From a bacterium (GTDB taxonomy: Bacteria > UBA8248): a stretch of DNA of 64,000 nt. Positions 48,189 to 60,100 of the stretch are shown here, one piece after another. The stretch is from NCBI GenBank assembly GCA_965213685.1, contig CBDBZY010000002.1, positions 46,472-110,471 on the forward strand. Direction: 5' to 3'. The notes beneath the pieces were generated by a model, which worked only from the letters and a program-made list of their open reading frames with translations, did not search any database and was not told the DNA's origin. Each line of letters begins with the position of its first letter. Position 1 is the first letter of the stretch. A program made the translations under genes and the position numbers.

Positions 48189-51100
48189 ATGGTTAGACCG
48201 GGATTGTTGGACGGAGGCGAAAGAGAGACAAAAGCAATAGTGATGTTCAGACGAAAAACCGTGCTAACCCAAAGCCTGTCGGAGGAGAAGACGGTGTACG
48301 AGTGCCTAAGCAAACTGATTACCGCGCAGACGAGAGGTGAGCTGCCCGTTGCACTACAGTGCCTCTTACACCACTCTGTTGTTCACTAGTGCATTGAACT
48401 AAGTATACATTCACGACGGAAAGTATTTCGATGCGTGTGTTGACATGCATGTGTTGATATGAGAGAGAAGCATTCGGTATACCTGATTAGTTGGATAAGT
48501 GCTACTCTGTGCTTTTGCTAATACTCTGAGCCATTGTTTTAGTTTCATTTCATCAACACATAGAGGAATTAAGAACCACCAGAATCATTGCAATACTAAA
48601 ACATTTTTTCTCACGATCCCATGATTTTGCAGTGGTAAAACGCAACCAGGTGCCAAGTGCTTGAGAGTTTTCTTCCAAAAAGAGGTTTGCATGTGTGGTC
48701 CAACTCACTCCCGGCCCTGCCAAAGCCAACACCTGCTGTGAAGTGTGTCCAGGTGGAAGCAAGGAGCCACAGTCACTTGTGATATGGCTAACTATAAATT
48801 ACACAGTTCAGAGGCTCAGGTGTATTCAAATTCCACGTTGCAATGTGTTGGTGCACTATCCAAGTGTTGTTATGTTGCAATGTTGGAGGAGAACATGTTA
48901 ATAGGACTTGAAAAGCGTACATTGGTTCTGATCATAATTTAGGGAATGTGTTGAGGTGTTCCTTTACCCTCCGTACTTGGATGGAGCTCTAATGGAAGGG
49001 TATTTGTACACCTTCTAATGTGTACATGTAGTCCCATACATGGCTAAAATCACATGCACATGCTCGTGATGTCAGTAAGTGTATACTTTCCAGCTGAAAA
49101 TTGGTTTCACTTGACCTTTGTGCAAATTGAAAGGACTACATTATTTTTAAAAGCTGTGTCGCCAGAAATACATGTTCTTATCATGCTCTCGTGTAAAACA
49201 TCTGATCCCGTCTTTTTTGCTTCCTTGTACTACTTAAAAGGCACTCTCCCTTGAGTAGCCTTGTAAGAGCTTTTTAAGTGTGGAGCACTTTCCTTGTCAC
49301 ATGTGTTTCAATGGACTGAGCTCAGTGTGACGTCTTGGCGTCTGCTCACTGCCTCCCTGAGATGAAAGAGATCTGAGAGTGAATTGACAGATGACAAATA
49401 AGAGCAATTTGTACACGGACCCATTTTATGCATGTCAGAACAAATGTATATCTCTATGGAGAGAATAATATTTGCACGTACTTCATAACACAATTAACTA
49501 TGTTCCCACGGGAATGTTTAGTGCTTTGTTAGTTAACGTTACTAATATTAATGCAGCACTGACGGCTTCCACTTCGTAGGAATTATTAATTCAGTAACAC
49601 TTGGCCAAAGCTTCACTTTGGTATGTACTTACAATGGCATTAGGCCAATCATGTCTATCCACCCCCACACTGGTTAACCACTGCCCATCATTCCCTGCCT
49701 TGTTCTGCCTGCCTCCCCTCACCACAGCTGAGGCACTGGTCATTGCGAATCACTGCTCCTATTAACTAACCATATTGTCAAACACAGGCCAACTCTCAAC
49801 CACCCACACGGTTCGGCATAACTTGGAACCAACCATCCATTGCTAAGGAAGAGGCAGCAATTTCCTCATAGAGTATTGTGTTGTTGTAGGAAGCATGCTT
49901 GTTTGATGAGCTGTTGAACGTGATTGGAGTGGATCAGCCCCTACCTCTGTTCCACTCCAGGTGAAACTCTATCTTCCACATGTGTAGTAGGAATGCTAAG
50001 AATGACTCCATTCCTTCTTTGAGAGCCTCACTCCACCTGCTGGTTAATTCCCACTTGTATAGGGCGGTGCTTTCTTGATTATGCGTGAAATGTAGTTGAT
50101 TTCTTCTATCACCTGGCTTGCTCTCTTCTGACAAACATGGTGACCTGTTTAGCCACTATTTGTGTGTCATTCCTGTGTTGTGTCCAAGTAGCCCTTCATC
50201 CTTCCACTTTGCTCCTCAAACATATCCTTAACACCCACCCACCCACCAGTTGCATGCAGATGATCTGAGGTCAGCATGGCTTCTGTACCTCTATGTGTGC
50301 ATCATTGGTTAGTGTGCTTCCCTACTGGCCTGGAAGACTCATCTCTCCTTCTCCCTCCCTTCCATTTTTCCTCTCACTCTCTTCTTTCCTCTCCTGTCCT
50401 GTCCACATGTTCCAGTCTGCTGCATAACTACCAATGCTCAGAATCATTCTGAGTGTTACGTATGGAGTTAGAGCTATGAGGGCTTTTGTCCAGAGTAGGT
50501 GTCCCAAATTTATTGTATCCTGAAACGTCAGTGTTGACACAAACAGAGGACAGTTTCCCCTCGGGCCCAATCACCCGCAGCAGTCAGATCGGTGTTGTAT
50601 AAAGGTTGTGTGCACACAGAGAGAGCAGTGACACCTACAGCAATACTGGAATCTCCCCCACTGCCTCCCCTCCCATTGTGGTCATGTGCCTTATTGGGTT
50701 AATTACTGGTGAATCCTTACCTGTTGCATGGCCCTTGTATATCTTGAATAAGGAGGGGGAAGTGTTGTGCAATTTATTACATACAGTTCTATTTATAGAT
50801 CCAGTTTGTAAATATATACATTATCTTTGGATTGTTTTATTTTTCATGTGTTCCTTTGTTTACTTAATGTGTTTGCATACAGTAGTAAAGTGGCCCGCCA
50901 GCTTTTTGTTTGCCTGAACCACAATCGCTGTCTTTGTCATAAGCACTGCCCCGAGGTAGTGGGAGTGTGTTCAAGCCAATAGACCAAGGCTTTTGAAACT
51001 GTGGAGGAGGAGATCCCACACTCTCCTACCTTTGTCAGGGACAAGATTTACTTCCCATCTCATTCAAGGTGTCCTAGGTGTGGCATTTGAACAGACATAG

Positions 51101-57100: not shown

Positions 57101-60100
57101 GAGGGGACCATTTTGTACACATGTACAGCAACCACACACAGCCTTTCCTGTGCCTTTGCTGTAGTACTACTGTACTGTATGATAAGGACTGAAACTACTA
57201 GTATATTGTAAACATTGTTGTCTCCAAAATGTTGTACTCATGCTTTTTCCTTAAATAGACATTCACTTGCTCTTTTCTCTCTCACATTTCCAGGCAGAGA
57301 GTGCCAAGAAAAAGAATGATACAGCAAAAATTCAGAGTCTGGAAGTTGAACTCACAACTGTAAGTCAATCACCATTCATGGACTATAGCTACATACATAT
57401 GTATATACATGTACCAGTTCCACCTCTTTCACGTCTTCTTTCATGTATACAAGTACATACATTTGTTGCTTTGTTCTCACTTGCATCCTCCACCCTCTCC
57501 CCCTCTGTCTCGCATGTTCTGGCGTCAACAGCAAGGCAGTTTGTTTGAGCACCTCACCGAGTCAGTGGAGACGCAGTCTCAGAAACTGGAGCTCTATAAG
57601 GTATTTACTTTCAGTCTGGAGCAAGCCATGACCTCATGCATATCTACAAATTACTCTATTATCTCCTTCCCTTGCTCCCACATGCATGCATGCATGCATA
57701 CACATACACTCTCTCTCTCCCTCTCTTCTCCCCTCCCCTCTCTCTCTCTCTCTCTCTCTCTCTCTCTCTCTCTCTCTCTCTCTCTCTCTCAATCCCCCCC
57801 CTCTCACTCAGGTTGACCTCCTCAAAAAAGGTCTTCAGAGCCAAGCTGAAATGTACCTTGACCTTACCCTCAAATATCAAGCTCTATTTAATGCTCAGCT
57901 ACAACTGGCAACCCTGCTACCTATGCCATCTCCCCCTTCCCCCCATCCTTGTGGCAAAGAGACCAGAGATAGTGAGAAGTGATGAGTTAAAAGTACTTTT
58001 GTCACAAGCATGGCAACATATGTACATGTCTCCAGGCCACCTTTCTCCCCCTGTATTCACTACACGTGCCTCCTTCCCTTCCTCCCTCGATTCCAACAGT
58101 ACCTGAGGAGATGAAGCGCATTCTCTCCCAGGTCTCGGAGAGCCTTGAACTCTACCCTCCTACCAATGGCGGTGTCAATATGAAGAGGTTGAGTGAGTCT
58201 GCTCCCTCCCCCACGTCCTGCCGACGTTCTGTGGTAGAGATTGACTTGCACATGAAAAAACTCAAGAACCAACACTCCATCTCTGCTCCAATCCTAGTGT
58301 GAGTGTTGCTATAGTTACCATATATAACAGTTAGATACTGTGTCCAAGGGATCTACGGTATTTAGAAACCCAAGGGCCCTGGGCTGTAGTGTCCCGAGCG
58401 CAGCGAGGGCACTACTAAGGGCCCGAGGGTTTCTAAATACCGTAGATCCCATTGGACACAGTATCTAAGTTGTTTAGAGCATAGGTTCCTTACTTGTACT
58501 TCTTGTAGAAATTGTAGGTTCCTTACTTGTACTTCTTGTAGAAATTGTAGGTTCCTTACTTGTACTTCTTGTAAATATTGTAGGTTCCTAAGAGCATAGG
58601 TTCCTTACTTGTACTTCTTGTAGAAATTGTAGGTTCCTTGCTTGTACTTCTTGTAGAAATTGTAGGTTCCTTACTTGTACTTCTTGTAGATATTGTAGAT
58701 TAATTAATTGTACTGGGTAACTACACCATTCAGTAACTACCTACTGACCAATCAGATTTGCGTATTAGTAACAGCTATGCTCTAAACATACATTATGACA
58801 TGTATTGTAGTAATAGTACTATAGCTGTATTAGTTAGGAGTGCACACACACACACACACACACACACACACACACACACACACACACACACACACACACA
58901 CACACACACACACGTCATGCCTCATGCATCCTATGCCTTCCCTCATCAATAGACTATGTTTGCTATGTGACATGCATAGATTATCTCTGAACTGCTGCGA
59001 TGTGGTCCTGAGACATGTTTCTGTAATCATTTGCATTCCTGAGCATAGCTACAATGCATCATGCATGACTGCCATGTACATATGCTATATATATATATAT
59101 ATATATACATGTACATGCACACATACATGGAAAAACATGTATATAGCATCCTAGCTACAGAAAAGTTAGAAAGAAGAAGAGAAAGAACCTCAAGTGCACA
59201 TAAAACACAAAAGACACAACATACAAAACAGAAAGCAGGACCCCTGAGTGCCCAGCCTTGAGAACTGGGGCAGTAGGTTAAAGAGTCTTTTATGGGCCCA
59301 ACTCTCCCTACACACCCAGTGTCCCAACTGCCCCATGTTAAAATAGACTATGAGTACTAAGTTACATGTACACTCCTCATCCGAAGTGAGATTGCTCCCT
59401 AGTTCACCCACCCGCCAGCTAGGTGGTGACCTCTTGAGCCACATGCCCATGTGAGTGGGCCGTACATTGGCTCGAGAGAATTGTGACAACAGCTTTGATA
59501 TAGAGCGATGATTATTCTTATACAACCCAACACGTTTTGATTGACATTTGGCATGTGACAGATCAACACTGTACGTGTGGTCTGAACACTGCATGGTATC
59601 AGTATGAGAGACCTATTAGCCGATCACAACAGTTCTGTGTGGCTGCTGTGAGTATACATGCTACATAGCTAACGTAGCATATGTATCTCTAAATTACATT
59701 GACTGACCTCAATACACGCATACATGTGCATGCAAATGCACACATCCCCTCACACATGTTTATACAGTGGACATAGCAGTCGCCCAGAGGATGCCAATCA
59801 GCCTCAGGCTGCCCCTCGCCCCCTCCCAAAGGAGCCCTCTCTTCAAGACATGGGCACCAGCGGAGAGTACTGTGAGATTGACATTATTACTGGCCAGAGC
59901 GACGAGGAGCAGAAGTATATGCAGGCCAGGAAGAATGTGGGCGTCCGCAGAACTCAATGTGAGTGGATAGAGGAAAGTGTACATACGGAAGAAGTGTATG
60001 TAAACAGTTGCAGTAGTGTTGCTCTAATATGTATAATTATGTGTTGTTCACTTTAAATGCTGACTCCAAGTACCTAATTCAAGCCACCAAAGAAACTTTT

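Follow-up and report, generated by a model that had tools for sequence, protein, structure and literature searches.

A nine-exon sponge gene for a probable Pil1/Lsp1-type BAR domain protein with a long disordered tail

Pil1 and Lsp1 form the defining scaffold of the eisosome, where Sur7, Nce102 and Seg1 are their partners in the Can1 membrane compartment (MCC), and are treated as fungal proteins. A stretch of 64,000 nucleotides (contig CBDBZY010000002.1 of assembly GCA_965213685.1, positions 46,472 to 110,471 of the forward strand; hereafter the window, in whose own numbering all coordinates are given) raises the question of whether animals also have such a protein. A first-pass annotation, made by eye from the letters of the window, had read one of its genes as an animal gene with a Pil1/Lsp1-like BAR domain. 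Is this gene spliced and expressed, is its domain related to that of the fungal proteins, and would its product build eisosome-like furrows? We have good confidence that it is an expressed, nine-exon sponge gene for a cytosolic protein of 753 residues, which carries a divergent BAR domain of the Pil1/Lsp1 type and most likely works as a curvature-sensing adaptor. Three lines of evidence agree in supporting kinship with Pil1/Lsp1: a transitive chain of HMMER matches, the searches of solved chains with family profiles, and the predictions of fold and dimer. The divergent Pil1/Lsp1-type BAR domain is modelled in the first 230 or so residues as three long helices with a fourth packing back on them, and sequence comparison places the protein in a holozoan-wide, uncharacterised branch of the Pil1 family.

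Gene structure and splicing

The coding sequence lies on the + strand between 48243 and 61999. Joining its nine exons by coordinates gives 2262 nt and 753 residues with a single terminal stop, and 8 of 8 introns are of the GT..AG type. Its parts are listed below together with the joints seen in X3, one of four sequencing runs containing the last exon (X1 to X4) that were compared with positions 48100-62100.

Exon 1, 48243..48336, + strand: residues 1-31, MFRRK start, at which both orthologues begin.
Intron 1, 48337..56471, + strand: 8135 nt, GT..AG, X3 depth near zero.
Exon 2, 56472..56593, + strand: residues 32-72, with the conserved Trp (W39) and the KWA..E.NP block.
Exon 3, 56868..56981, + strand: residues 73-110; S77/R78, R81 and H84 align with Pil1 R126, K130 and R133.
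Exon 4, 57294..57359, + strand: residues 111-132, the turn between helices 2 and 3; joint 56981>57294 in X3.
Exon 5, 57532..57600, + strand: residues 133-155, the start of helix 3; joint 57359>57532 in X3.
Exon 6, 57812..57971, + strand: residues 156-208, the end of helix 3, within the predicted dimer interface.
Exon 7, 58100..58298, + strand: residues 209-274, with the extra C-terminal helix EEMKRILSQVSESLELYPP, which aligns with the Pil1/Lsp1 helix that follows the BAR core; joint 57971>58100 in X3.
Exon 8, 59768..59958, + strand: residues 275-338, in which the disordered tail begins; carries the conserved GEYCEI; joint 58298>59768 in X3.
Exon 9, 60753..61999, + strand: residues 339-753 and the stop, a Ser/Pro-rich tail without a Pfam family.

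Two sponge orthologues accompany this gene model. A word-based search with the last exon returned 20 matches, mostly unnamed fragments of open reading frames (ORFs), among them the window's own ORF, sponge-like ORFs and P0019, a partial protein of 687 residues from Geodia barretti (GBAR_LOCUS1440). The N-terminal region of P0019, used as a query in the same kind of search, found only P0019 itself and P0021 (762 residues, encoded on a contig of 2651 nt), which shares 51.6% identity with the window protein over its full length. When compared with the window by tblastn, P0019 and P0021 proved colinear with all nine exons and read across the join of exons 1 and 2.

The sequencing runs bear on the splicing directly. 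Runs X1, X2 and X4 cover introns as well as exons, as expected of DNA, while the depth of X3 is zero in 13 of the 15 bins lying wholly inside intron 1 and below 3 in the remaining two. One X3 contig (977 letters, depth 296) consists of the pieces 48213-48336, 56476-56593, 57810-57971, 58100-58298 and 59768-59890, and the first two of these are separated by four letters that match 56472-56475; this join of exons 1 and 2 is read from the table of contig pieces and is not a row of the table of joints, where four later GT..AG joints of X3 are entered. An X3 contig starts at 60753, and its loose end carries the end of exon 8. None of the runs with the last exon is listed as RNA, and the type of the X3 run is not on record; we infer that the contig represents spliced mRNA, a processed DNA copy being formally possible.

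The first-pass annotation thus had the exon positions and the spliced N-terminal translation right, as the joined exons and the tblastn of the orthologues confirm, and its 8-kb first intron and its junction of 48336 to 56472 are both found (the latter in the X3 contig, with the reservation just given on its RNA nature). Its limits of the gene need correction at both sides. Position 57971, given as the end, is only the end of exon 6, and the gene continues to 61999. Position 48189, given as the start, is an in-frame ATG 54 nt upstream of 48243 that would add 18 residues; the residues encoded by 48189-48242 have no counterpart in either sponge orthologue, both of which start at MFRRK, and the X3 contig begins at 48213, a contig end that does not fix the start of the transcript.

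The introns contain several repeats. Intron 1 has a (CA)n run at 52724-52837 and a C/T-rich tract ahead of its acceptor, and between 53237 and 53703 the depth is 13- to 20-fold above that of the flanks in X1, X2 and X4; variant letters are numerous there in X4, and the segment is probably a dispersed repeat. Tandem repeats occupy 58476-58714 in intron 7 (units of 33/115 nt) and 60292-60577 in intron 8 (units of about 152 nt). In the DNA-like runs their summed contig depth exceeds that of the flanks by a factor of hundreds to thousands, the bins 57907-58840 and 60242-60708 reaching up to about 236,000, against about 60-170 in the flanks. The two arrays have the look of satellite-like repeats spread through the genome. 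In the DNA-like runs a joint omits about 172 nt of the intron 8 array, which suggests copy-number variation.

Sequence and fold relationship to Pil1/Lsp1

The sequence link to the fungal proteins runs through intermediates. A profile of the two sponge orthologues (A1), searched by HMMER against 1.84 billion representative proteins, gave 105 matches at an expectation value (E) of 0.001 or below, 30 of them at 1e-10 or below. Among these is the Capsaspora owczarzaki protein CAOG_01508 (P0025; E 6.5e-22 over profile positions 10-196), which aligns with the window protein at 29.5% identity over 241 residues (blastp, 99.8 bits), scores 84.9 bits on the Pfam Pil1 model (PF13805, gathering score 27 bits) and finds yeast Pil1 in the PDB at E 1.4e-14. 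A word-based search with P0025 returned only P0025 itself and P0058, and no fungal Pil1 sequence was obtained from it. As judged from these alignments, the link between the sponge and the fungal proteins is transitive: each step is firm and no direct match joins the two ends.

The 52 A1 matches with long matched stretches, together with P0019 and P0021, were taken as a family set of 54 proteins. Pfam Pil1 was found at E <= 0.01 in 24 of the 54 and FAM92 (PF06730) in four, while seven other families occurred in one or two members each; F-BAR/FCH is absent from the nine Pfam families so found. Among 20 members scanned for their scores, the Pil1 cut-off was reached by P0025, P0056 (27.9 bits) and P0036 (27.0 bits), and nine more fell below it. 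The FAM92 matches that were scored individually, at 17.2 and 20.9 bits (the latter P0026), are both under the cut-off of that family (23.6 bits), and neither P0019 nor P0021 has a Pfam match to FAM92.

Profiles of the family reach the solved fungal structures. The 54-row profile (A3) found in the PDB Lsp1 at E 3e-13, Pil1 at 3.6e-11 and, over about 92 positions, CIBAR1 at 1.4e-6. A metazoan-only profile of 19 rows (A4), built without the Capsaspora and choanoflagellate rows and including three unnamed Logan proteins that cluster with sponges, found Lsp1 at 6.4e-10, Pil1 at 3.2e-7 and CIBAR1 at 0.073, and its alignment with Lsp1 spans the whole domain (profile positions 21-236 on chain residues 24-226).

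The predicted fold points to the same relatives. AlphaFold2 modelled residues 1-243 of P0019 from the 54-row alignment with a mean predicted local distance difference test (pLDDT) of 94 and a predicted template modelling score (pTM) of 0.84, and placed helices at 7-42, 46-117, 120-189 and 206-226. In a Foldseek search of the PDB, 6 of the 6 matches at E <= 0.001 are Lsp1/Pil1 chains (E 1.5e-5 to 2.4e-4, template modelling (TM) scores 0.55-0.75); SNX1-SNX5 come next (E 1.0e-3, TM 0.44-0.49), FAM92A stands at rank 23 (E 0.025), and the F-BAR chains have E values of at least 0.011 with TMq of at most 0.46. VIA-align, run independently of Foldseek against 48161 representative chains, gave Lsp1 the Z values 16.1 (root-mean-square deviation 3.4, 207 residues aligned, model residues 4-228 on Lsp1 51-260) and 15.6; arfaptin followed at 12.4, Vps5 at 12.1, ACAP1 at 11.9, BIN1 at 11.6, FAM92A1 at 11.3 and the Cdc15 F-BAR at 9.8. 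Only the two Lsp1 rows align through model residue 228, i.e. over the fourth helix, the other rows listed ending by 206.

A two-copy prediction scored 0.79, where the best of 3 controls had 0.00; its contacts agree by at least 90% across three runs, and the partner pLDDT is at least 84. Of 30 proteins solved as pairs of one chain, 20 reach the mark applied here, as does 1 of 23 that were solved as single chains. The predicted interface is symmetric and comprises residues 7-55 and 152-193 of the modelled orthologue.

The Pil1/Lsp1 likeness that had been recognised by eye is therefore borne out, the HMMER alignments showing the C-terminal helix, the conserved Trp and the K130 block, and the best profile and structure matches (A4, Foldseek, VIA-align) are Pil1/Lsp1 and not FAM92/CIBAR, SNX-BAR or N-BAR proteins.

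Membrane-binding positions, tail motifs and competing readings

How Pil1 binds membranes is described in PMC11324527: its folded N-terminus makes lattice contacts, an amphipathic helix (39-48) inserts in the membrane, R126, K130 and R133 contact phosphatidylinositol 4,5-bisphosphate, and R43, K66 and R70 contact phosphatidylserine. When the N-terminal 35 residues of Pil1 are deleted as well, the substitutions K130E/R133E abolish its membrane binding (PMC3257569). These positions were mapped by eye through the A4 alignment onto the profile positions and counted over 55 family rows.

Pil1 W89: Trp in 53/55 rows; W39 in the window protein.
Pil1 K66: basic in 44/55 rows; K16 in the window protein.
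Pil1 R126: basic in 39/55 rows; S77 in the window protein, with R78 adjacent.
Pil1 K130: basic in 25/55 rows, Glu in 19; R81 in the window protein.
Pil1 R133: basic in 5/55 rows; H84 in the window protein.
Pil1 R70: basic in 0/55 rows; E20 in the window protein.

The position of Pil1 R143 is basic in 47 of the 55 rows. The profile alignment of the family begins at Pil1 F42-R43-R44; a basic residue stands at R43 in 30 rows and at R44 in 31 of the 55, and most non-sponge members have a hydrophobic-R-R motif at the spacing of F42-R43-R44. In the window protein the R43 position is gapped, although its start reads MFRR: the demosponge proteins start M-F-R-R about ten residues nearer to helix 1, with only about 6 residues before that helix.

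Beyond the domain, residues from about 245 to 753 form a Ser/Pro-rich, disordered tail of about 500 residues in which no Pfam family is found. Its main motifs are these.

YADPVDA, 60989..61009, + strand: first copy of Yxx-P-[FV]-DA (motif check in 27 proteins).
YSRPFDA, 61268..61288, + strand: second copy of Yxx-P-[FV]-DA; NPF in both sponge orthologues.
PPPPP run in KSPPPPPVPAR, 61391..61405, + strand: SH3-ligand-like (tblastn and motif check).

The window protein, P0019, P0021 and P0024 each have Yxx-P-[FV]-DA twice, Sycon P0041 has it once, and the other 22 of the 27 proteins checked lack it; all five carriers lie in the sponge clade of the quick tree described below. The tail blocks conserved in the sponge orthologues further include GEYCEI, KSPPPPPVP, WDRREPVWKR, AWLER, RLRQLRQRSQSDG, SRPPMPLPIPEQ and the C-terminal PLSAAEIV, and proline motifs are common in the tails of other family members. 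From known motif classes, we infer that the tail motifs are SH3, SH2 or EH ligands. The EH-domain ligand NPF was considered as a family-wide tail motif and discarded: it is found only in P0019, P0021 and Branchiostoma P0038, and the window protein has RPF.

We propose that two copies of the protein, in contact by helix 1 and the end of helix 3, make up an antiparallel homodimer whose basic face would bind acidic, curved membrane by way of K16 (Pil1 K66), R78 (beside R126) and R81 (K130). The short basic-hydrophobic N-terminal stub (MFRRK) may aid this binding, and the motifs of the tail (the two Yxx-P-[FV]-DA copies, GEYCEI, PPPPP and RPPMPLP) would bring SH3-, SH2- or EH-type partners to the membrane.

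Several results weigh against this assignment. Pfam Pil1 has no match in P0019 (E <= 10), in P0021 (E <= 1) or in exons 2, 3 and 6 taken singly. The two-sequence profile A1 finds neither Lsp1 nor Pil1 among PDB sequences at E <= 10; it and phmmer with P0019 return only noise there (e.g. a coronavirus spike N-terminal domain by chance at E of about 0.2). The 6-row profile of the sponge clade (A5) ranks Lsp1 first, at an E of no better than 0.22, with Pil1 and CIBAR1 not listed. Because of the Pfam miss in the orthologues and this A5 value, the link depends on the intermediates and on the fold, and the AlphaFold and dimer models may themselves lean on the solved Lsp1 structure, which makes them less than fully independent evidence beside the sequence link; the dimer result may reflect likeness to the solved Lsp1 dimer only. 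In the Atlas search, in which the best value (0.92) belongs to an unnamed arthropod cluster, a FAM92-labelled cluster ties with a Pil1-labelled cnidarian cluster at 0.86. On the functional side, Pil1 residues 1-38, the lattice-contact N-terminus, have no counterpart in the sponge proteins, the R70 and R133 positions are not basic in the window protein, as listed above, and the lipid pocket, by alignment, appears only partly kept (even K130 is basic in no more than 25 of the 55 rows). The missing lattice segment and the partly lost pocket weaken the eisosome-like scaffold function that had been suggested for the gene. Since the protein fails the Pfam threshold and has no lattice N-terminus, a partial pocket and a motif-rich tail, we regard it as belonging to a holozoan branch of the Pil1-type BAR family and not as a demonstrated eisosome component.

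The same observations bear on what else the protein might be. It could be a true eisosome-type scaffold, whose dimers would polymerise into a membrane-bound lattice and give sponge cells stable furrows of the plasma membrane, as Pil1 and Lsp1 do in yeast: Lsp1 and Pil1 are its best relatives in sequence and structure, a BAR dimer is predicted, the K66 and K130 positions and the neighbour of R126 are basic, and the hydrophobic-R-R motif of most non-sponge members falls within the inserting helix 39-48. We consider this decidedly unlikely, as the N-terminus through which Pil1 makes its lattice contacts is lacking, the R133 and R70 positions are not basic, and a tail of about 500 residues would have to fit into a tight lattice. 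Unlikely, too, is that the BAR fold is kept solely for dimerisation, the protein being a soluble dimeric hub that acts through its tail motifs and does not bind membrane directly. Of the five named basic positions, only two hold a basic residue in the window protein (K16 and R81, plus the basic neighbour at R126), and the sponge orthologues strongly conserve the motifs of the tail, as such a hub would have it; against it speak the family as a whole, which is basic at K66 in 44, at R126 in 39 and at R143 in 47 of the 55 rows, the basic N-terminus (MFRRK) and the membrane-binding nature of the solved close structural relatives.

Very improbable, in our view, is a FAM92/CIBAR-like, SNX-like, N-BAR or F-BAR protein whose Pil1 signal would be drift among helical profiles. 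The FAM92 matches in 4 of the 54 members would fit, yet stay below the cut-off where scored (e.g. P0026, 20.9 vs 23.6 bits); the CIBAR1 match of the broad profile A3 (1.4e-6) covers about 92 positions and drops to 0.073 with A4, with which Lsp1 stays at 6.4e-10 across the whole domain; and the UniRef name 'F-BAR domain-containing protein' on hemipteran members and the FAM92-labelled Atlas cluster (0.86) stand against the Foldseek values (FAM92A E 0.025, F-BAR E at least 0.011 with TMq at most 0.46, Lsp1 1.5e-5) and the VIA-align values (FAM92A1 Z 11.3, Lsp1 16.1, with only Lsp1 covering residue 228). Fungal contamination or a recent transfer from a fungus, in favour of which nothing was found, has next to no probability: the nine GT..AG exons, which the first-pass annotation had already held against contamination, and the colinear sponge orthologues led us to reject it, the neighbours are animal-type genes (three ORFs with a TNF domain and a gene with RCC1 repeats), the window protein lies inside the sponge clade of the quick tree, and no fungus is found among the 22 relatives that carry an organism name. 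The curvature-sensing adaptor with a divergent Pil1/Lsp1-type BAR domain is hence the reading that we keep.

Distribution of the family and likeness to known systems

An organism name is attached to 22 of the 30 relatives that were looked up: 20 are invertebrate animals, one is a filasterean and one a choanoflagellate. They are the holozoan protists Capsaspora and Savillea (the choanoflagellate), the sponges Sycon and Oscarella, the cnidarians Stylophora, Acropora and Hydractinia, the acoel Convolutriloba, the hemichordates Ptychodera and Saccoglossus, the amphioxus Branchiostoma, the echinoderms Amphiura, Holothuria and Antedon, the brachiopod Lingula, the bivalves Tegillarca and Solemya, the hemipteran insects Homalodisca, Laodelphax and Lycorma, and the crustaceans Oratosquilla and Cyprideis; there are neither vertebrates nor fungi among the 22. 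In a quick tree of 55 rows (arbitrary root, weak deep forks, no fungal rows), the window protein groups with Geodia and P0021 with a support of 100, inside a clade with Sycon.

All named relatives are 'hypothetical' or 'uncharacterized' apart from automatic labels, such as 'DDB_G0284459-like' for the Ptychodera protein and, for Cyprideis, a gene model fused with mS25. Two hemipteran proteins, P0096 and P0101 (of the Homalodisca and Laodelphax clusters), carry the UniRef label 'F-BAR domain-containing protein', which is unsupported by the fold and Pfam tests of the family. The claim that this is an unrecognised protein stands in part: no named relative is characterised, but the Pfam Pil1 domain is already precomputed on the Capsaspora relative and on 31% of the cnidarian Atlas cluster.

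In PMC3128537, significant BLAST matches are confined to fungi, and Pil1/Lsp1 homologues are placed in Dikarya; the portions of PMC13312728, PMC12470953 and PMC6723945 that were available make no mention of animal homologues. A literature search, whose scope left out most subscription journals and supplements, found no report of animal or holozoan Pil1 homologues.

A broader reading, which we put forward as unlikely, is that the Pil1-type BAR scaffold is ancestral to opisthokonts, not an invention of the fungi, and is retained by sponges, cnidarians, echinoderms, hemichordates, amphioxus, molluscs, brachiopods and some arthropods, and that animals build or sense with it stable, tension-responsive domains of the plasma membrane, as a counterpart of eisosomes, lineage-specific tails wiring in tyrosine-kinase, SH3 or EH-type partners. 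On this reading the family would have been overlooked because no vertebrate is among its named relatives and it is uncharacterised. Lee et al. (2015) reportedly described furrows resembling eisosomes in algae that have no Pil1 genes. Should the family bind membrane, the origin of the scaffold would shift back to the opisthokont ancestor, and cnidarians (Hydractinia, Nematostella-like) and Capsaspora would be suited to the study of a Pil1-type BAR domain in cells without a wall.

The remainder of the window holds further genes. ORFs of the TNF family lie at 31816-32367 (+ strand), 33439-34074 (- strand) and 62534-63061 (- strand), with 28.7, 23.9 and 39.8 bits on Pfam TNF (cut-off 23); these genes for TNF-superfamily ligands make up a small cluster, one of them standing tail to tail just downstream of the Pil1-like gene. 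Upstream of the latter, exon-like ORFs at 43454-46558 (- strand) have RCC1 repeats (Pfam RCC1, 8.5e-13 and 1e-9), and look like a multi-exon gene with an RCC1-like domain. An ORF at 2-610 (+ strand), open at the start of the window, matches the beginning of the Na_H_Exchanger transmembrane domain (5.9e-11), and its gene leaves the window. The ORFs at 6413-8119 (- strand) and 10483-11631 (+ strand), of 568 and 382 residues, are acidic and Ser-rich, have no Pfam match at E <= 0.01, and are probably large exons of other genes.

Among known systems, the closest is Pil1/Lsp1 of Saccharomyces cerevisiae (PF13805; PDB codes: 3PLT, 8QB7 and 8QB8). The likeness consists in (i) a colinear, profile-level similarity over the whole domain; (ii) the three-helix BAR core with an extra C-terminal helix packed on it, and the BAR-type homodimer, both predicted here; and (iii) the Trp (Pil1 W89), K66 and the basic residue at the K130 position. 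Unlike the yeast proteins, the sponge orthologues are not reached by the Pfam model, have no basic residue at the R70 and R133 positions and lack a counterpart of the first 40 or so residues of Pil1; the C-terminal end of the yeast protein is short (the PDB chain has 339 residues), whereas a motif-bearing tail of about 500 residues follows the domain here, and the host is an animal without a cell wall and not a yeast. CAOG_01508 of Capsaspora, an uncharacterised member of Pfam Pil1, is the best bridge between the sponge proteins and Pil1; it differs from the former in its length of only 260 residues, without a long tail, and in being basic at the R126, K130 and R133 positions. FAM92A/CIBAR1 (PDB codes: 9UHD and 8CEG) shares the fold of the BAR superfamily and a weak, partial similarity over about 90 residues, but its A4 value is not significant (0.073), its Z is 11.3 against 16.1 for Lsp1, and the fourth helix is left uncovered. 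Lastly, the yeast sporulation proteins Meu14 and Ssp1 are described, in the abstract of PMC12470953, as Pil1-type BAR proteins that have diverged beyond recognition of the primary sequence and have roles outside the eisosome. Both are fungal proteins, with the forespore or prospore membrane as the one they shape, and they are set beside the window protein by this description only, as Pil1-type BAR domains that serve other membranes than the eisosome.

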